A stretch of DNA of 64,000 bases. Origin: an uncultured Verrucomicrobiaceae bacterium (lineage in GTDB: Bacteria > Pseudomonadota > Gammaproteobacteria > Pseudomonadales > CAMLJR01). Below the pieces are notes generated by a model. The model saw nothing but the letters and a program-made list of their open reading frames with translations, did no database searches and had not been told where the DNA came from. The stretch is taken from the NCBI GenBank assembly GCA_964500675.1, contig CAZCNY010000007.1, positions 81,582 to 145,581 of the forward strand. Direction: 5' to 3'. The translations under genes were made by a program, and so were the position numbers. Positions 19,786-57,785 of the stretch are shown one piece after another (position 1 is the stretch's first letter; each line of letters begins with the position of its first letter).

Positions 19786-20377
19786 TTACCGAGACCGCAG
19801 CAATCGCTCGCGAAATTCTCCGGGTGTTAGACCGATCCCGCGCCGGAAGGCAACGCAGAAATTCGATGGCGATGAGAAGCCCAGCGTTTCCGCGATTGCG
19901 GCAACACTTTCATCGGTCGCTAATAAGCGTTTGGCGTGTTCAATCTGTCGCTGCGCAACGTAAGCGCCGATGGAGTGGCCGTAACTGCCAGGGTGCAAGC
20001 CCGCCGTGGGGTTGCGCATCCAACACCACGGTGCCGCGGCGCATCAGTTCGACGGTCAATTGTGTGGTGATGGAATCGACGAGTATTTGACTGGCAAATC
20101 CCGGTTGCCTCGCTTCTTCCGCCAATCTGAGCAGCAGGCTTTGAATGCGTGTGTCCTGCACATCGAGCGCGGCTAGCAATAGATTTTCGGTCGGCTCGGG
20201 GAGGACATCAAATAACTCGATAATGGATTCGCGTTTGAGATGGCAGGTGATCGATGTCAGCGAGGTGCTTTCATCGCTTTCGATCTGTAAATCCAGATCG
20301 GGCGGCGCAATGAAGAAATCGTCGTCACCGCGCGGCGCACGGAAGAAAATATTCAAAAAGTGCCGCTGTCGATACAT
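19786..20377 (-). pseudogene. AraC-family transcriptional regulator, 5'-truncated and internally deleted/frameshifted
   Basis: Two ORF-track pieces in different frames (19940..20377 and 19786..20019). The first ends ...GGLAPWQLRPLHRRLRCAATD*. The second carries only the second HTH half (GHSIGAYVAQRQIEHAKRLLATDESVAAIAETLGFSSPSNFCVAFRRGIGLTPGEFR). About 40 codons that normally hold the first HTH are missing at the junction, and the N-terminal sensing domain is incomplete. Confidence 0.75.
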
Positions 20378-20381
20378 TTAC

Positions 20382-20864
20382 ATGGATGCTTATTTTGTCG
20401 AGTTTATGGTGCCGAGAAGTTCGGCGAGCCCTCAACTCGATTGTACGGGCAGCTATATTTCAAACGGTCAGTTGGGCAATTATTCCTGCATACCGTTTGC
20501 GGATACGCCTAAACAACAATACAGCGTCGGCTTTAATTACAAACTGCCGATCGATAAACAATTTGGTGATGTTGAAGCCGCATTCACTTATAGTCACGTG
20601 GACAAACGTTATACGGCGCCAATAACCGTTCCCCAGGCCGAGCCTGGTGCTTGGCTGGATAGTTTTGGTATCTTGAACGGCAGTATCAGTTGGAGCGAAG
20701 TTTTTAAAACACGGTTCGATTTGCAAGTGTTTGGAACGAATTTAACCAACCAGACCTATCGCGTGTCCAACAGCAATACCTGGAATGAATTGGGTTATCA
20801 AAATACGATTTGGAGTGAGCCTCGCATGTATGGCGTAAAAGCCACGTATCGCTGGGGTGATTAA
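20382..20864 (+). pseudogene. C-terminal ~160-codon fragment of a TonB-dependent receptor
   Basis: The tail of ORF 20145..20864 reads ...YSVGFNYKLPI...LQVFGTNLTNQTYRVSN...SEPRMYGVKATYRWGD. These are typical terminal beta-strands of a TonB-dependent receptor. The plug and most of the barrel are absent, and the upstream part of the ORF is antisense to the AraC remnant. Confidence 0.7.
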
Positions 20865-29656: not shown

Positions 29657-31342
29657 ATGGCAGATACCAAACAAAGACTGGTCCAGGATGATGGACAGGT
29701 TAAGCGCCCCATGGTGGGCTGGTACGACCCCGGCCAATTAATTCAAACCGCGGTTTCCGTTGTCGTCTCGACATGCTTCGGCCGCCACGCCGATTTTCGA
29801 CTCATGGAAGCGTTGGCCGTCAACAGCGAAGTGCATCGTTTCGATGAGTGCATCGATGGCGCATTTTGGTTTGATTATACCGCCGACGCCGGTGACGGCT
29901 GGAATTCCAGTTATGCCGTCGCGTATTGGCTGGCGCAACCGACACTGCATCTGCGCGATGAAAACGGCGGTGAACACCGTACCGAGCGCGGAAAAATTCT
30001 CGTGTTCGGCGGCGATGAGGTGTATCCCGTTGCGAGCCGATCGGCCTATCAAGAAAAATTGATCGATGTCTACGAGGCAGCGCTGGCGCAAACGCCCGAA
30101 AAAAATTCGCCGACGGTATTCGCGATTCCGGGCAATCACGATTGGTACGACAGCCTCGCCGCGTTCATGCGTTTGTTTTGTTCCGAGCGCTGGTTCGGCG
30201 GGTGGCGGACGCAACAAAAGGCGAGTTATTTCGCCGCGAAATTGCCGCGCGGCTGGTGGCTGATCGGCACCGATATTCAATTGGATTCCGATATCGACGA
30301 TGCACAGGTGCGATTTCTGCGCAGCGTCGCGGAGCAAATGCAAGAACGCGATCGCATCATTCTCTGTGTTGCGGAACCGCATTGGATTTACGCAAAAGCG
30401 TACGGCATCGACGACAAGGATTACAACGAAAGCAATCTCGCCTTCATCGAGGAAAAGATTTTCAAGCGCAAGATAGCCGCTTTTGTCGCGGGCGATCTGC
30501 ATCATTATCGCCGGCATGCGGCGCCCGACGGCGTGCAGAAAATTACCGCGGGGGGTGGCGGCGCGTTTTTGCATCCCACGCACGGACCCGATGTGGAAAA
30601 TCTCGCCGACGATTTCAAGCTGGCGAAAAGTTTTCCCGACCAGAAAATTTCGCGCCGCCTGGCGTGGCGCAATGCAATGTTTCCGGCGCTCAACCCGACG
30701 TTCGGCGTGGTCACGGGAATTTTGTATCTGCTCACCGGGTGGGCTACGCATTTGGATTTATCCACGTATTCGTTGCGCGAGATAAAACCGGCGCTCGGCG
30801 CATCGGTGAACAAAGCGCTGAATGAACCGCTCGCGGCATTTTGGATAACGCTGGTATTTCTCGGGTTTTATTTGTTCACCGATACGCACTCGAAATGGTA
30901 TCGCTATAGCGCGGGTACGCTGCATGGCCTCGCTCATTTGCTGGCGGTATTTAGCCTCGGTTGGCTCAGCAGTAAATTGACCGTAACGCTGCTCGGTTTC
31001 GCCTTCGGTTCGACGGCGCAATTGTTGAGTGCGGGGCTTGCGATGTTTATCGGCGGTTGGCTGGCGGGTTCGATCATCATGGGGCTGTATCTGCTGATTT
31101 CGCTGAATGGCTTCAAGCATCACACCAACGAGGCCTTTTCGTCGCTGAAGATCGAGGACTGGAAAAATTTTCTGCGCATGAAAATCGATGCCGATGGCAG
31201 TTTGACGATTTTCGCGGTGGGCTTGCGACGCGTGCCGCGCCGATGGAAAAAAATCGGCGAGCCCGGCGCGCGCAGCTGTATCATTCCCGATGATAAAAGC
31301 GCAACCGAGCCGCATCTGATCGATAAGGTCGTGCTTAGATGA
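29657..31342 (+). CDS. metallophosphoesterase fused to a C-terminal polytopic membrane domain
   Basis: 561 aa with calcineurin-like motifs DAGDG, GGDEVYP, IPGNHDWYD and AGDLHHY, followed by ~5 hydrophobic segments (aa ~350-490). Confidence 0.8.
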   Translation: MADTKQRLVQDDGQVKRPMVGWYDPGQLIQTAVSVVVSTCFGRHADFRLMEALAVNSEVHRFDECIDGAFWFDYTADAGDGWNSSYAVAYWLAQPTLHLRDENGGEHRTERGKILVFGGDEVYPVASRSAYQEKLIDVYEAALAQTPEKNSPTVFAIPGNHDWYDSLAAFMRLFCSERWFGGWRTQQKASYFAAKLPRGWWLIGTDIQLDSDIDDAQVRFLRSVAEQMQERDRIILCVAEPHWIYAKAYGIDDKDYNESNLAFIEEKIFKRKIAAFVAGDLHHYRRHAAPDGVQKITAGGGGAFLHPTHGPDVENLADDFKLAKSFPDQKISRRLAWRNAMFPALNPTFGVVTGILYLLTGWATHLDLSTYSLREIKPALGASVNKALNEPLAAFWITLVFLGFYLFTDTHSKWYRYSAGTLHGLAHLLAVFSLGWLSSKLTVTLLGFAFGSTAQLLSAGLAMFIGGWLAGSIIMGLYLLISLNGFKHHTNEAFSSLKIEDWKNFLRMKIDADGSLTIFAVGLRRVPRRWKKIGEPGARSCIIPDDKSATEPHLIDKVVLR

Positions 31343-31388: not shown

Positions 31389-32870
31389 ATGCGCTATGTA
31401 TTGGCGATGGATCAGGGCACCACGAGTTCGCGTGCGATCGTATTCGACAGCGCTGCGCGCATCTGTGGAATTGCGCAGCAGGAATATCAGCAGCTGTATC
31501 CACGGGCGGGGTGGGTCGAACACGATCCCTACGATATTTGGCAGAGCCAGCTCAGCGTTGCGCGACAGGCGCTCACGAAAGCCGGCGTCACCGCGCGCGA
31601 TATCGCCGCCGTCGGCATCACCAATCAGCGCGAAACCACATTGTTGTGGGACCGGCGCAACGGTAAACCGATGGGCAATGCGATCGTCTGGCAGGACCGG
31701 CGCACCGCGGATCGTTGCGCGCAACTGAAACCGCAGCATGAAAAATTATTTCGCGAACGCACGGGGCTGCTGCTCGATCCGTATTTTTCGGGAACCAAAC
31801 TCGCGTGGTTGCTCGATCATCATAAAGATGCGCGCAATCGCGCCGAAAATGGCGAGCTGGCATTTGGCACGGTCGATACCTGGTTGTTATTCAATTTAAC
31901 GAAAGGCGGATTGCACGCGACCGACGTGACGAATGCATCGCGCACTTTGTTGTTCGATATTCACCGCAATTGCTGGGACAGCGACTTGCTTGCGGCGCTC
32001 GTCATTCCCGAAAAATTATTGCCGCGAGTGTTGCCTTCAAGCGCTAAGTTTGGGTACACCGCAGCCGAATTATTCGGCGAGCCGATTTTGATCGGCGGCG
32101 TCGCTGGCGATCAGCAAGCGGCGTTATTTGGTCAAGCTTGTCACGCTCCGGGCATGGTTAAAAATACCTACGGCACGGGTTGTTTCATGCTGATGCAAAC
32201 CGGCGCGACTGCGTGCGCGTCGCGACATGGTTTGTTGACGACGAGCGCGGCGCAAATCGACAGCACGCCGATATTCGCGCTTGAAGGCAGCGTATTCATC
32301 GGCGGCGCAGTGGTGCAATGGTTGCGCGATGGTCTCGGCATCATCAAAAGCTCGAACGAAATCGAAGCGCTCGCCACTTCTGTGACCGACAGCGGCGGCG
32401 TGTATTTCGTGCCCGCATTCACCGGTCTCGGCTCGCCGCATTGGGATCCGCATGCGCGCGGCACGATATTCGGTTTGACGCGCGGCAGCACGAAAGCGCA
32501 CATCGCGCGCGCTGCGCTCGAAGCCATCGGTTATCAATCCGCTGAATTGTTGTTAGCGATGCAACAGGATGCCGGCACACCGATCAAAGAATTGCGCGTC
32601 GATGGCGGCGCAAGTGCAAATAATTTATTGATGCAACATCAAGCCGATTTACTCGGCGTACCCGTCGTGCGCCCGCGCATTATCGAAACCACCGCGTTGG
32701 GTGCGGCGTATCTCGCGGGATTAACCGCCGGTGTATGGAGTAACACAGAAGAAATTTCAGCGCATTGGCAAATCGATCGCGTTTTCGAACCGATGCTTTC
32801 GCGCGATGAAGCGGCGCAACGGATGTTTGATTGGAGTAAGGCGGTGAGCGCGTGTAATCCGTGGAGATAA
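31389..32870 (+). CDS. glpK: glycerol kinase
   Basis: 493 aa with [20 protein letters not shown] start and the FGGY-family signature throughout. Confidence 0.96.
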
Positions 32871-32871
32871 A

Positions 32872-33591
32872 TCAATTAACCTTTGGCTTTTCGAGATAAC
32901 ATTCTCTTAGTAAGTTTTCTAATTTAATAAACGTGTCATCGATTAGCTTTTCGGCACCAATCAGTACTCCAACTTTGTCGCCTTTATTAAAGCAGGGTAA
33001 CTGTTTAACGGCTGCTTCGGGTAAATAGAACTCAATATTGTCTGTTCCATTGGTAAAGTCGAACCAATGCTCTGCTGTACTGAATTCATTACTGTAGTGA
33101 TAAACGCCAGCCCTGTATTCGGCAAGCTTGTTGATCCAACTACTGTGTAGGGACTTTACTGATGCGGCCGTTTTTGGAAATCCGAGATGGTTGTTTCTTA
33201 AGGTTTGTTGAAGACTGTTCCATTTCATGATTTTTGACGTATTTTCTGTAATTATCATCGTTATTAAAGAGGCGGAGTAATCGATCAGCGAAATTAAATT
33301 AAAAATAACATCATCAAAGTTGAATGAGATTGGAAATAGATGGTTAATTGCAGCTGGGTAGATGTCGTCTCGGGTTTTTTGAAGGGAGATCGTATAGATG
33401 GCGTTGTTGAGAGTTGCTTTTAATGCGTTGTAATTCCATTGGACGGCGGATGCTCTATAGGCCACTGCATTGCTTCGCTCGGTTAAGATGGTTCTAGTGG
33501 CGGTTGCAGATCCAGAGTAATGTTCATTTAAGTGAGTGATCAGATAACCTCTGATTCTATTTTCGTATTTGCGAAACTCTACATCTTGCAT
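32872..33591 (-). CDS. AT-rich orphan protein (239 aa), possible HEPN-like domain
   Basis: Intact ORF with GGTGA RBS. Three 60-nt lines inside it count 30%, 42% and 30% G+C, against 57% for a glpK line. Contains LAEYRAGVYHY (R160-x4-H165). I recognise no homologue. Confidence 0.6.
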   Translation of the reverse strand: MQDVEFRKYENRIRGYLITHLNEHYSGSATATRTILTERSNAVAYRASAVQWNYNALKATLNNAIYTISLQKTRDDIYPAAINHLFPISFNFDDVIFNLISLIDYSASLITMIITENTSKIMKWNSLQQTLRNNHLGFPKTAASVKSLHSSWINKLAEYRAGVYHYSNEFSTAEHWFDFTNGTDNIEFYLPEAAVKQLPCFNKGDKVGVLIGAEKLIDDTFIKLENLLRECYLEKPKVN

Positions 33592-33624
33592 GTTTCACCA
33601 TTTAAAATTTCAACCATTAGTATG

Positions 33625-35823
33625 CTATTTCCGCCGCGAACCACGCGCATTTTTAGAGCGGCTTCGTGCTGGTTTATCTCCACGATCGCGCGGCGGTAAT
33701 CCTGTATGCTGCGTCAAAATCCGCTTGCCAGGCTTTTCGGGTTTCGCCGTCGATGTTTTCGATGATTGCCAGTTCGCAGGCTGGCGCGGCGGGATCAATT
33801 GTTTTTTGCCGTAGCCGATTAAATCGGCGCGGCCCATTTCTTTGAGTGTGTCGCGCAGTAGCGGCCAGTTTTCCGGGTCGTGATAGCGCAGAAACGCTTT
33901 GTGCAAACGGCGCTGACGCAGGCCTTTCGCGGTAAACACTTTTTCGCTGTCGCGATTGACGTGGTGCAGCGGATTTTTCCCCGAGTAATACATCGCTGTT
34001 GCGTTCGCCATCGGCGAGGGATAAAACGCCTGCACCTGATCGGCGCGAAAGCCATTTTCCTTAAGCCATAGCGCGAGATTGAGCATGTCCTTATCGGTGG
34101 TGCCCGGATGCGCGGCGATGAAATACGGAATCAGAAACTGTTCTTTGCCGGCCTGTTTCGAAAATTTATCGAACATCGCTTTGAAGCGATCGTAGGTGCC
34201 GATGCCGGGCTTCATCATTTTCGAGAGCGGGCCATCCTCGGTGTGCTCGGGCGCGATTTTCAAATAGCCGCCGACGTGATACGTGACGAGCTCTTTCACG
34301 TATTCCGGTGTTTCCACGGCGAGGTCGTAACGTAAACCTGAAGCGATCAGCACACGCTTGATACCGGGCAATTCGCGCACGGCGCGATATAAATGAATCA
34401 GCGGCGTTTGATCGGTGTCGAGATTTTTGCAGATGCCCGGATACACGCACGATAAGCGCCGGCAGTTCTCTTCGATTTTTTTGCTCTTGCAGTTGAGCCG
34501 CCACATATTCGCGGTGGGACCGCCGAGATCGGAAATCGCGCCCGTGAATCCCGGCGTTTTGTCGCGAATATTTTCGACTTCGCGCACGATCGATTCTTCG
34601 GAGCGGCTTTGAATAATGCGGCCTTCGTGTTCGGTGATCGAACAAAAACTGCAACCGCCGAAACAGCCGCGCATGATATTCACCGAGAAGCGAATCATTT
34701 CGTACGCGGGAATTTTTGCATCGCCATACGCCGGGTGCGGCACGCGCTGATACGGCAATTCAAAAACGTTATCGAGCTCGTCGGTTTCAAGCGGCAGCGG
34801 CGGCGGGTTGAGCCACACTTCGCGCTCGCCGTGTTTCTGCACGAGCGCACGCGCATTGCCGGGGTTGGTTTCCAAATGCAAAACGCGCGCGGTGTGTGCG
34901 TAATACACGGGATCGTTTTTAACCTGTTCGTAACTCGGCAGGCGGATCACGGTTTTATGCGGATCGAGTTTCGCCTTGCGCGCGGTCAGCGGATCGAGAA
35001 TGCGTATGACCTGCGTTTTTTCAACGAGCGGCTCTGCTTTTTTCGTTGCGCATACCGATGGTTCTTCAACCATCTCATAAGGGTTTTTGTGATGATTGGT
35101 TGGGCCGAGTTGATCGAATTCGGTTGAATCGATCACGGTCCAACCGGCAGGAATTTCATTCGTCGCGAATGCAGTGCCGCGCACATCGCGAATATTTTCG
35201 ATGTTTTCGCCGTTCGCTAAACGATGCGTGACTTCGACAATCGCGCGCTCGGCATTTCCGTACAGCAATAAATCGGCTTTGCTGTCGAGCAAAATCGAAC
35301 GTCGAACTTTATCGCTCCAATAATCGTAATGCGCGATGCGGCGCAAACTCGCTTCGATCGAGCCGATCACCACCGGCACATCGGGATACGCTTCCTGGCA
35401 GCGCTGCGAATACACGATGACGGCGCGGTCGGGGCGTTTGCCGCCGACATCGCCGGGCGTGTACGCATCGTCGTGACGCAGGCGGCGATCGGCCGTGTAG
35501 CGGTTGATCATCGAATCCATATTGCCCGCGGCGACGCCGAAATACAGATTCGGTTTGCCGAGCGCCATGAATGCGTCTTTCGATTGCCAGTCGGGCTGCG
35601 CGATGATGCCGACGCGAAAACCCTGCGCTTCGAGCGTGCGGCCGATCACGGCCATGCCGAAACTCGGATGATCCACATACGCATCGCCCGTAACGATGAT
35701 GACATCGCACGAATCCCAGCCGAGCACATCCATTTCCGCGCGCGACATCGGCAGAAACGGCGCCGGGCCGAAACATTCGGCCCAGTATTTTCTATAAGAA
35801 AAGAGTTGTGTGGCTTGGGGCAT
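33625..35823 (-). CDS. ygiQ: YgiQ-family radical SAM protein (UPF0313)
   Basis: 732 aa with [44 protein letters not shown] start, a CFGGCSFC radical-SAM triad and a basic C-terminal tail. Confidence 0.9.
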
Positions 35824-55214: not shown

Positions 55215-55551
55215 ATTTTCGGGTGTTCGGAAAGCGATGATGAAAGCGGAGGCTTGATGGCGTCGGTCGAAACGTTCCACTCGCCATCATTCCCAGCGCG
55301 CCAGAGTTGACAAAAGCTCGGGCATTGCCAGAGATAAAGAATTCTTGCTCCGTGTACCCTAAACTCGCCAAATTGATTGCCGACGACTGAAAGGGAAAGC
55401 CGTGAGCGCCAGCCAGCGGGTTTGAGACCGTTGGCGTTGGTACTGCCGCCATGCCGGTCATGGGCGCAGCGACATTATCCCTACTCAAAGCCGAAACGAA
55501 ACTACAATACACGATAAAAATACCGGGAGGAGTTGAATGACGCAAAAACAA
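55192..55551 (-). pseudogene. N-terminal remnant of a paralogue of the 56253..57785 hydrolase-like gene (frameshifted, 3'-truncated)
   Basis: INLASLGYTEQEFFISGNARAF aligns with FDLGSVGYQQSEYFISGKARSY of the intact gene. The next segment matches only in another frame (NDGEWNV versus TDGKWSV) before returning (SLRFHHRFP versus FKTRFLIYRP). The ORF then ends inside the CHAD gene 3' end. Confidence 0.65.
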
Positions 55552-56040
55552 TCCCAGTCACCGAGAAGCGAGTCGACCAATCGGGTAGATCGTCTTGGTC
55601 ATCTCATCAGCTTACTTGAGCGCATTCTGCGCAAAGAACTATCGGATGCGTTGGCACCGATGCAATTAACACTGCAGCAATATGCTGCTCTGCAGATATT
55701 GAACAACAACGATAAGATGTCGAACGCTAAGCTAGCTAAACGATCTTTTATGACACCACAATCGACGAATGAAATGGTCAATACAATGGAGGCTAAATCA
55801 CTCATCGTTCGGCAGCCGAACGAAAACCACGGGCGCATTATTCACATATTGATCAGTAGAAAAGGTAAAAAAACGTTGCAGAAAGCCGATGCAGCCGTGC
55901 TGGAAGTCGAAAAGCGCATGCTGGAGCACATCCCGCAGAATCATCGCATTAAATTTCGTGATCAGCTTATCGGCTGTATCATCGCTTTAAAAGCTTCTGT
56001 TTTACAGGACTTTCCGCTTAACGAAAACTTGGATACTTGA
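55537..56040 (+). CDS. MarR-family transcriptional regulator
   Basis: 167 aa. LTLQQYAALQILNNNDKMSNAKLAKRSFMTPQSTNEMVNTMEAKSLIVRQPNENHGR is a winged-helix MarR pattern. A counted 60-nt line gives 40% G+C. Confidence 0.85.
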   Translation: MTQKQSQSPRSESTNRVDRLGHLISLLERILRKELSDALAPMQLTLQQYAALQILNNNDKMSNAKLAKRSFMTPQSTNEMVNTMEAKSLIVRQPNENHGRIIHILISRKGKKTLQKADAAVLEVEKRMLEHIPQNHRIKFRDQLIGCIIALKASVLQDFPLNENLDT

Positions 56041-56061
56041 GTTAGTTATTTTTGAACTAAC
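56041..56061 (+). other. AT-rich hairpin immediately after the marR stop
   Basis: GTTAGTT-atttttg-AACTAAC (7-bp perfect stem) with no T-run. Could be a weak terminator or a protein-binding site. Confidence 0.3.
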
Positions 56062-56125
56062 TCTATAAATAGTGGCAAGAAATCGCATCCCCGCACTAGC
56101 CATCTCCACTTCATCTTGCGTTTTA

Positions 56126-56142
56126 TATCAGGCTGCCTGATA
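56126..56142. promoter_or_regulatory. 17-bp palindrome, candidate MarR operator
   Basis: TATCAGGC-T-GCCTGATA lies between marR and the hydrolase-like gene, 111 nt upstream of ATG 56253. Confidence 0.4.
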
Positions 56143-56252
56143 CTTGCTGCGCCATGTGACATCTGGCGCTCGCCGAGATCGATTACTACCGATCATTTAA
56201 GATAAAAAATAAGAGAGCGCATTAAGCAATACGAACAGACAGGACATCAAAA

Positions 56253-57785
56253 ATGCCAATAATAAGATCGACACCTAAGCAGATGGTGAGGGGCGCGCAG
56301 TTTCTATCTATTTTCCAACTGTTGATCGTCGTCAGCGTAGGATCATTTATGAGCGCCTGTAATTCCGGTAGCAGCGGCCATTCTTCTACAGTCACGCCAA
56401 ATCCCGTCATCGAAGGGCCAATTGCTGGCACGCCTACATTACTCGGCACCACCATGTTCGATCTTGGCTCTGTTGGCTATCAGCAGAGCGAATATTTTAT
56501 TTCCGGCAAAGCGCGCAGCTATACCAGCAACTCGACGTTAAATACCGATGGCAAATGGTCGGTGCGTGTTGCCGACACAGCGGATTTTAAAACGCGCTTT
56601 CTTATTTATCGACCGATCGATGCCGCTGCGTTCAATGGCACAGTGATATTCGAATGGCTCAATGTAAGCGGTGGTCCCGACACGGCTGCTGAATGGATGG
56701 TGTCGCACAACGAGCTGATCCGAAAGGGCTACGTGTGGATCGGTATTTCGGCACAAAGCGCCGGTATCCAAGGCGGTGGCGTGAATTTTTCGGGGCTACA
56801 GCTGGATTTAAAAACGATAAATGCAGCGCGTTATGGCACGCTCACGCATCCGGGCGATAAATACGCTTTCGATATATTTTCGCAAGCCGCACAAGCAGTT
56901 CTCCATCCCAAGGATATCGATCCGTTAGCGGGTTTACACGTGCAGCGCGCATTCGCTGTTGGCGAATCGCAATCGGCCGATTTTCTGGTGACCTACGTGA
57001 ATGCGATCGCAAAAGACGCGAAATTATTCGACGGTTATTTTATTCACAGTCGGTTTCACGGCACCGTCGGTTTGAATCCCCCAACCTTTACTTCGGAAGG
57101 CATCGATTTTCTCGCGCGGCCTAGCGTGCTCGTGCGCGATGATCTGGATGTGCCTGTCATGATGTTTCAGACTGAAACGGATGTTTTGATGTTTGGATCG
57201 TATTCCGAGCGTCAGCCCGACAGCGCGCATTTCAGGCTTTGGGAGGTGGCTGGTACCGCGCATGCGGATATCTATTCGGCGCAGACCAGCCTGACTGATA
57301 AGGGTAATGATCCAAATGTTGCTGCGGTTATTGAGCAGAGTTTTCCGCTCTATGGTTGCACCATTCCGGTCAATTCGGGACCACAGCATTTTGTCGCTAG
57401 CGCAGCTATTGCCGCACTCGATAATTGGGTGCGCAATGGGGTGGCACCAGCGTATGCAGATCGGCTTGAAGTTGCGGGAAATCCTGCGGCATTTGTTAAG
57501 GACAGCGTCGGCAATGTACTGGGCGGTATCCGTACGCCATATGTTGATGTGCCCGTTGCGATATTGTCTGGTGAAGGTCAGACGGGAAATTTGCTCTGCA
57601 CGCTGTTTGGTACCACGCAGCTATTCGACAGCACGCAACTGATGAGTTTGTATCCCGATCACGCCACCTTTGTTTCTGAGATAAATACATCGGTTGACAG
57701 TGCCGTGAGGGAAAGATTTTTGCTGCAGCCTGATGGTGATCTCATCAAAACGTGGGCGCAATCATCCAATATCGGCACGCATTGA
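56253..57785 (+). CDS. alpha/beta-hydrolase-like lipoprotein of unknown function
   Basis: 510 aa with a signal peptide ending FMSAC (lipobox-like) and a nucleophile-elbow-like AVGESQSADF. I recall this large family only as hydrolase-domain proteins of unknown substrate. Confidence 0.65.
   Translation: MPIIRSTPKQMVRGAQFLSIFQLLIVVSVGSFMSACNSGSSGHSSTVTPNPVIEGPIAGTPTLLGTTMFDLGSVGYQQSEYFISGKARSYTSNSTLNTDGKWSVRVADTADFKTRFLIYRPIDAAAFNGTVIFEWLNVSGGPDTAAEWMVSHNELIRKGYVWIGISAQSAGIQGGGVNFSGLQLDLKTINAARYGTLTHPGDKYAFDIFSQAAQAVLHPKDIDPLAGLHVQRAFAVGESQSADFLVTYVNAIAKDAKLFDGYFIHSRFHGTVGLNPPTFTSEGIDFLARPSVLVRDDLDVPVMMFQTETDVLMFGSYSERQPDSAHFRLWEVAGTAHADIYSAQTSLTDKGNDPNVAAVIEQSFPLYGCTIPVNSGPQHFVASAAIAALDNWVRNGVAPAYADRLEVAGNPAAFVKDSVGNVLGGIRTPYVDVPVAILSGEGQTGNLLCTLFGTTQLFDSTQLMSLYPDHATFVSEINTSVDSAVRERFLLQPDGDLIKTWAQSSNIGTH

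Follow-up and report, generated by a model that had tools for sequence, protein, structure and literature searches.

The 64,000-nucleotide (nt) stretch analysed here, hereafter the window, comes from an uncultured Verrucomicrobiaceae bacterium (GTDB lineage Gammaproteobacteria; Pseudomonadales; CAMLJR01) and corresponds to positions 81,582 to 145,581 of contig CAZCNY010000007.1 (assembly GCA_964500675.1). Within it, a single open reading frame (ORF) fills the space between glpK and ygiQ (Table 1). By analogy with characterised HEPN proteins, its product is probably a stand-alone HEPN ribonuclease (RNase), the best-supported reading of the data presented below. A first-pass annotation of this DNA had described the ORF as an AT-rich single-gene insertion between glpK and ygiQ, read through from ygiQ, whose product carries a possible HEPN Rx4H motif and could act in defence or as a toxin. 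The placement given there agrees with the sequence: one base (32871) parts the stop codon of the ORF from the glpK stop codon TAA (32868-32870), and 33 nt separate its ATG (33591-33589) from the stop codon of ygiQ, which ends at 33625. A Shine-Dalgarno-like GGTGA (33595-33599) lies within this spacer, 3 nt ahead of the ATG.

Table 1. Features of the glpK-ygiQ region, in coordinates of the window (aa, amino acids).
Feature	Coordinates	Strand	Remarks
Candidate HEPN-like ORF	32872..33591	-	Intact, 239 aa, ATG start, TGA stop
R160-A-G-V-Y-H165 codons (Rx4H, predicted catalytic dyad)	33097..33114	-	C-terminal end of helix 139-165
F92-Y105 codons (FDDVIFNLISLIDY), second family signature in helix 74-115	33277..33318	-	D93, D104, invariant Y105
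AT-rich 33-nt spacer, ygiQ stop to ORF start	33592..33624	-	Sequence
Foreign AT-rich segment, gene plus spacer, 754 nt	32871..33624	.	Edges are the glpK and ygiQ stop codons
ygiQ (radical SAM), native upstream gene, same strand as the ORF	33625..35823	-	Pfam Radical_SAM_N, Radical_SAM, DUF3362
glpK (FGGY kinase), convergent neighbour	31389..32870	+	Pfam FGGY_N, FGGY_C

The ORF differs sharply from its surroundings in base composition. Its G+C content (GC) is 0.392, against 0.552 ± 0.034 for 720-nt windows (z = −4.6), which makes it the lowest 720 nt of the 64 kb. In 300-nt windows, GC ranges from 0.38 to 0.42 in the ORF and from about 0.53 to 0.63 in the flanks, and GC at third codon positions (GC3) is 0.41, compared with 0.63 ± 0.07 for 51 ORFs of the window. 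The windowed calculation thus upholds the AT-richness noted earlier. We also found no integrase among the genes neighbouring the ORF, no flanking direct repeats, and no tRNA or Rfam family in the whole window, in agreement with the annotated absence of integrase, tRNA and direct repeats.

Comparison with related genomes places the gene in a variable slot. Orthologues of ygiQ that are 88-94% identical occur in Spongiibacteraceae and place the host, a marine bacterium, in that taxon, and five relative loci with YgiQ in this identity range carry other genes directly after ygiQ, the gene family of the ORF being absent from 5/5. The cargo found there consists of TauE (L046), a DUF4160 and DUF2442 pair (L047), or a small unknown gene with TraT (L048-L050). 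The gene order pst-phoR-phoB-purU-ygiQ is kept in part or whole in four of the five, the L047 sequence being too short upstream, and nucleotide homology with the closest relative extends through the ygiQ stop codon and then stops. None of the relatives' downstream genes is present anywhere in the window, so the gene lies at a synteny breakpoint, in a slot whose cargo differs by lineage, and did not enter a junction of glpK and ygiQ that was there before. The earlier description as an insertion between glpK and ygiQ is therefore correct for where the gene lies today and has to be amended for its history, since glpK and ygiQ are not adjacent in the relatives. In Spongiibacteraceae the position just after ygiQ is a hotspot for cargo. 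Because of its extreme AT-richness and its absence from five close relatives, four of which retain the upstream synteny, the gene is foreign and was horizontally acquired as a single gene, as had been proposed from composition.

No sigma-70-like promoter was predicted across positions 32300-34200, and no terminator-like site was predicted for the ygiQ-ORF gap or the ORF-glpK gap. Since the gap between ygiQ and the ORF holds neither a predicted promoter nor a predicted terminator, the read-through from ygiQ suggested earlier is plausible, and the 33-nt spacer fits it; the suggestion stands at that strength. We also noticed a 15-nt inverted repeat (14/15 complementary) around the AT-rich insert, with arms CGTGGAGATAAATCA (32860-32874) and TGGTTTATCTCCACG (33670-33684). 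The first arm covers the stop codons of glpK and of the ORF. The second belongs to the 3′ coding region of ygiQ, where it encodes RGDKP and matches the closest relative at 12/15 bases, and because one arm is thus native ygiQ coding sequence we rejected the repeat as the terminal repeat of a mobile element. In a ygiQ-ORF read-through transcript the two arms could pair around the whole ORF; the repeat may also be due to chance, our rough estimate being ~0.05 expected per 1.5 kb.

The ORF protein belongs to a family of its own. When 1.84 billion cluster representatives were searched exhaustively with phmmer, 146 relatives were returned at E ≤ 0.001, most of them 240-290 aa long, and the family is therefore genuine but rare, its size of ~146 being counted in clusters at 50% identity among those representatives. 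A word-indexed search of 5.8 billion proteins returned a hypothetical protein of Microbulbifer sediminum (53% identity) as sole relative, and five relatives when the family profile was used instead of the single sequence. Scanning of genomes added a further relative in a Pseudomonadales metagenome-assembled genome (52% identity). The family is annotated in no library that we searched.

Conservation within this family centres on the motif that had attracted attention in the first place. We aligned 81 members (mean column identity of 20%) and examined 61 more distant members separately. Exactly three columns of the 81-member alignment are invariant, namely Y105, R160 and H165, and conservation reaches 90% or more in a further seven (R46, D93, F97, S101, D104, W124 and L156). 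The counts among the 81 members are D 77 and E 4 at position 93, D 80 at position 104, N 61 and H 15 at position 98, and S 76 at position 101. R160 and H165 are also at least 90% conserved in the 61 more distant members. The resulting family signature reads RDSxxYR ... FxFDDhhFNxxSxxDY ... KWN ... YR[SGA]xh[IY]H. In the ORF protein the last element is the LAEYRAGVYHY reported by the first-pass annotation, which had rightly cautioned that the motif alone is weak evidence: Rx4H is present in 25% of shuffles of the ORF protein and, taken alone, is within chance expectation, yet it is invariant in 81/81 members. Rx4H is the most conserved feature of the family.

We next considered where these residues fall in predicted structures. 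An AlphaFold2 model of the ORF protein built with the family alignment (predicted local distance difference test, pLDDT, of 95.2; predicted template-modelling score, pTM, of 0.91) contains helices at residues 3-24, 30-69 and 74-115, a short helix at 124-133 and a helix at 139-165, followed by a beta-hairpin (172-189), a short helix (192-197) and a helix (209-233). The model of P0023, a member of the large subclade that is only 22% identical to the ORF protein over the aligned part, shows the same order of elements (pLDDT of 94.9). Rx4H forms the end of helix 139-165 in the ORF protein, ahead of a loop and the hairpin, and in P0023 it closes helix 146-172 at H172, again ahead of the hairpin. 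The insert at residues 116-138 of the ORF protein holds the KWN motif, and helix 74-115 in front of it holds D93 and D104. According to the survey of the HEPN superfamily by Anantharaman et al. 2013 (PMC3710099), the Rx4-6H motif sits at the end of core helix-3 and the start of the next loop, a conserved acidic residue in helix-2 lies near the motif, inserts between helices 2 and 3 are frequent, and in the Csx1 family a beta-hairpin directly follows the motif. The predicted element order of both models is in line with these four points. Judging from antiparallel helix geometry, R46, D93/D94 and R160 should share one level of the bundle.

A link to a named HEPN family is provided by Pfam HEPN_Cthe2314 (PF18730; profile length of 174, curated gathering cut-off of 27.1 bits), one of the families that the first-pass annotation had listed for comparison. 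This profile matches 3/81 members (best E of 6e-4) and 4/61 distant members, that is 7/142 at E < 0.1, and is the sole Pfam family matched by more than three members, HNH_4 being matched by three over a 20-residue patch. For the consensus of the 12-member subclade that includes the ORF, PF18730 is the top match (E of 0.0047, 17.4 bits, residues 53-186 against profile positions 11-143); no PF18730 match was obtained with the whole-family consensus or with those of the three other subclades. The bridge is member P0048, which scores 27.0 bits (E of 5.3e-6) over profile positions 11-156 of 174. P0048 is tied to the ORF protein by E-values of 2e-7 (library search) and 7e-14 (pairwise BLASTP), and to the family profile by hhalign (probability of 99.5%, E of 1.5e-22). 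The catalytic-type Arg maps near PF18730 position 115-118 in the Pfam alignments of both P0048 and the subclade consensus, and the register is hence consistent. The family is thus quite likely a sister or far branch of the Cthe_2314-like HEPN family, through a homology that is real but distant, and the HEPN-like character assigned at first sight gains from this bridge as well as from the invariant Rx4H that closes a long helix.

The genomic surroundings of the family were examined at loci retrieved with a tighter 27-sequence alignment. The family gene has a lower GC than its flanks in 39/41 loci, in hosts whose GC ranges from 30% to 64%, and each locus contains one family gene with no tandem paralogue (loci with same-sized neighbours were checked). 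Among the 88 genes within two positions of the family gene (~33 non-redundant loci), no neighbour family recurs and there is no conserved partner. Some loci are clearly associated with defence or mobility. One is a compact defence island (L042, 3847-10795) in which a DRT UG19 reverse transcriptase (E of 1.5e-151) is followed by the family gene, then by PDC-S06 (E of 3e-278) and a type I restriction-modification specificity subunit. A type II methyltransferase adjoins the family gene in L021 and an LmuA-like protein in L030, and neighbours elsewhere include a NERD protein (L015), a tyrosine integrase (L016) and an IS3-type transposase (L014). AbiTii and type IIG enzymes are also among the family's neighbours, at loci that were not individually mapped.

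Two further loci are worth describing for the way in which the gene is placed. The 53%-identical Microbulbifer sediminum homologue (L001, 7673-10172) follows nrdAB in an AT-rich island of its own (GC of 0.35-0.42 vs > 0.60), in the order 67-aa ORF, homologue, 132-aa hydrophobic ORF, SUKH/SMI1 immunity-type gene and 100-aa ORF. The gene for P0023 (L005, 10001-10750) lies ~480 nt after glmS, in the order atp operon-glmU-glmS-gene, with no transposase among the called genes; this is where the classical Tn7 attachment site lies. The locus of our window, for its part, illustrates the settling of single defence-like genes, with no integrase involved, in variable slots that lie 3′ of conserved genes in marine Gammaproteobacteria.

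Several results weigh against a HEPN effector and open the way to other explanations. The ORF protein has no match in Pfam, NCBIfam, PADLOC, PHROGs or PDB sequences, has 0 matches in PADLOC-DB v2 at E ≤ 10, and does not match PF18730 even at E ≤ 1, nor does any family member reach the PF18730 curated cut-off. Run against the 81 members, PADLOC models gave single weak matches only, the best at 0.0017 (PDC-M12A). Whether queried with the ORF protein or with the family consensus, collections of viral contigs, phage records and plasmid records yielded no family member. The literature holds no reported function for PF18730, and no reports of toxicity, RNase activity or phage for the family or for PF18730. 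At position 161, directly after R160, the 81 members have S (36), G (23) or A (19), and N or D in only 3, whereas the residue that usually follows the conserved Arg of HEPN proteins is a polar N, D or H, which is typical and not obligatory (PMC3710099); S, G or A at this position is a real departure from the typical HEPN site. Foldseek, run on both models for PDB and on one of them for BFVD, returned nothing at E ≤ 0.001. The HEPN domain of human sacsin (3o10_C) came at rank 16, with a probability of 0.35 and a target-normalised template-modelling score (TM-score) of 0.45, and did not reappear with the P0023 model. The order of elements in the models fits the four-helix up-down bundle of solved HEPN domains, but the structural comparison with HEPN families suggested by the first-pass annotation has left that fold unconfirmed. 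Separately, we rejected as noise the matches of the ORF protein to HNH_4 (0.024, 20 residues) and SusD (0.12), as well as that of the family profile to chloramphenicol acetyltransferase among PDB sequences (E of 0.71).

Such results are what would be expected of a helical protein of another function, in which the PF18730 signal and Rx4H are convergent or coincidental. No PF18730 match rises above the curated threshold, HEPN is not recovered by Foldseek, and shuffled sequences yield the motif as often as stated above. We nevertheless regard coincidence as improbable given that the motif is invariant throughout the 81 members and occupies the canonical helix position, that the Pfam alignments extend over 133-150 residues, are collinear and keep one register across independent members, and that PF18730 is the sole recurrent Pfam match besides the 20-residue HNH_4 patch.

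The Foldseek results also bring up a quite different activity. For both models the top weak PDB matches are alpha-helical toxins, namely Hbl-B (2nrj, E of 0.018), NheA, SmhA/B, AhlC, MakB/E, Cry6Aa, PaxB and ClyA, and the model does join 40-residue helices with one beta-hairpin, as would be expected if the protein were a ClyA/Hbl/Nhe-like pore-forming or membrane-active protein whose helical bundle and hairpin "tongue" insert in the membrane. This is highly improbable. TM-scores of these matches are 0.2-0.3 with a root-mean-square deviation (RMSD) of ~20 Å and none reaches E ≤ 0.001; the hairpin is polar (mean Kyte-Doolittle of −0.16 over 81 members), unlike a hydrophobic tongue; the invariant R, H and Y and the conserved D are typical of an enzyme site; and the sequence-profile signal is to HEPN and to no toxin family. 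On the grounds of TM-score, RMSD and hairpin polarity we rejected the ClyA-like matches, which we attribute to the combination of long helices with one hairpin. The best structural match of all was to A0A514TZW7 in BFVD, an unnamed viral protein of 275 aa (Foldseek E of 0.011, probability of 1.00, query-normalised TM-score, TMq, of 0.48). This match is a hint of a possible phage-encoded relative, although none came up when the phage collections were searched by sequence.

Still on the side of caution, most family loci have ordinary housekeeping neighbours, for example after glmS (L005), after nrdB (Microbulbifer) or beside hydrolases. A HEPN-related RNase might accordingly serve outside phage defence, as a selfish gene for addiction or stabilisation carried by small mobile islets, as a toxin or immunity-related protein of a conflict locus, or as a niche RNA-processing enzyme. 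Those neighbours, the lack of matches to known defence families and the proximity of the Microbulbifer homologue to a SUKH/SMI1 immunity-type gene are all in line with this possibility, as is the DUF4160 and DUF2442 pair in the ygiQ slot of one relative, which suggests that the slot collects selfish cargo generally. However, L042, L021 and L030 are clear defence islands, a singleton without antitoxin is hard to keep as a classical addiction module, and a passive immunity protein would hardly be expected to keep catalytic-type residues invariant. We consider a role outside defence unlikely, yet a contender to be reckoned with. The defence or toxin role put forward by the first-pass annotation is itself not established, as the ORF protein has no PADLOC or PHROG match and a defence or mobile setting is seen at only some of the family loci.

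Taking these points together, we assign a probability of roughly 0.5 to the reading in which the ORF is a divergent HEPN-superfamily singleton acting as an RNase toxin or abortive-infection effector. Considered separately, we lean towards RNase activity of the protein, and we propose a toxin or abortive-infection role only tentatively, at slightly less than even odds. There are HEPN enzymes whose metal-independent cleavage depends on both R and H of the motif (PMC3710099). By the same chemistry, the ORF protein would dimerise or oligomerise and thereby bring R160 and H165 together, probably across the interface, in an RNase site that needs no metal, assisted by D93/D94, R46 and Y105 at the same level of the bundle. 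Cleavage would leave 2′,3′-cyclic phosphate ends. The gene would probably be transcribed by read-through from ygiQ. Since there is no conserved partner, and no room for one in the window, control must be intrinsic: the protein would be inactive by itself until a cue such as phage infection switches its activity on, and would then cut tRNA, rRNA or mRNA and arrest the cell. Activation by an infection cue would follow the example of ApeA and DARNA, by analogy and not as a finding.

A bolder proposal is that of a minimal anti-phage system, in which a HEPN domain of ~240 aa, with neither partner nor sensor domain, both senses infection and cleaves RNA. R46, D93, N98, S101, D104, Y105 and W124 would then make up a built-in ligand or trigger site beside Rx4H, and the system would spread as a naked gene into intergenic slots beside housekeeping genes, settling after ygiQ, after glmS in L005 and after nrdB in Microbulbifer. 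We regard this proposal as doubtful. HEPN-domain singletons in variable genomic slots are a kind already known, and the ORF is a good candidate that will not surprise specialists. If the reading is true, it would give the first functional handle on the Cthe_2314-like HEPN branch and would place the protein among the smallest self-contained HEPN effectors in single-gene immune or toxin systems; should the protein prove not to be an RNase, what is left is an orphan gene gained by horizontal transfer.

Other parts of the window deserve a brief mention. Its second most AT-rich stretch (55537-57785; GC of 0.43-0.44 in 720-nt windows) contains a 167-aa ORF (GC of 0.45) and another of 510 aa whose product has a hydrophobic segment at its N-terminus. 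Another 239-aa ORF lies at 20145-20864, with a GC of 0.475 and a GC3 of 0.53 that are low relative to its neighbours. Adjoining glpK, a 561-aa protein (29657-31342) has a sub-threshold match to calcineurin-like phosphoesterase (20.2 vs a cut-off of 21.5 bits) and no Pfam family in the precomputed table; its C-terminal part looks hydrophobic by eye.

Comparison with known systems helps to situate the ORF family. Classical abortive-infection (Abi) genes are plasmid-borne, whereas we found no plasmid or phage match for the ORF family. The lactococcal Abi proteins with HEPN domains (AbiD/AbiF, AbiJ, AbiU2, AbiV, as well as AbiA's C-terminal domain) are comparable as HEPN proteins of abortive infection that are often encoded by single or few genes on mobile DNA (PMC3710099), but no member of the ORF family matches their Pfam or PADLOC models. 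With the HEPN-MNT modules (HepT-MntA) the family would share the predicted HEPN RNase chemistry through Rx4-6H (PMC3710099). Unlike these modules, the ORF has no adjacent MNT or other partner, its spacers measure only 33 nt and 1 nt, and the neighbours differ in every family locus. The position of the hairpin is common to the ORF family and the CRISPR-associated Csx1 proteins and may be convergent; the ORF family lacks both a CARF domain and a CRISPR context, and does not match Csx1 in sequence.

The closest parallel in sequence is the Cthe_2314-like HEPN family (PF18730), whose members are likewise small stand-alone proteins with a conserved Rx4H, and whose operon partners are listed as "None detected" (PMC3710099, Table 1), just as the ORF family is without a conserved partner. 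The ORF family is set apart by strong motifs of its own, RDSxxYR, FDDhhFNxxSxxDY and KWN, and by its invariant Tyr. As PF18730 has no reported function, the link to it would contribute a predicted chemistry and a fold but tell little of the biology. For the latter we turn to ApeA and DARNA (bioRxiv 10.64898/2026.01.26.701840 and 10.64898/2026.02.22.705581), two systems to which the ORF family has no detected sequence relationship (no Pfam Apea-like or PADLOC match). Defence is demonstrated for ApeA and DARNA, in contrast to the ORF family, for which we infer it, and ApeA assembles into large oligomers, doughnut-shaped and equipped with a separate ligand pocket, whereas the ORF protein is known from its sequence and models. 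According to the two preprints, each system consists of a single HEPN protein without antitoxin that stays inactive until an infection cue (deoxydinucleotides for ApeA; single-stranded DNA presented by the phage single-stranded DNA-binding protein for DARNA) and then cuts host tRNA anticodon loops, aborting infection. This likeness serves as a working model only, and it is the one that we adopt for the small HEPN-like protein encoded downstream of ygiQ.

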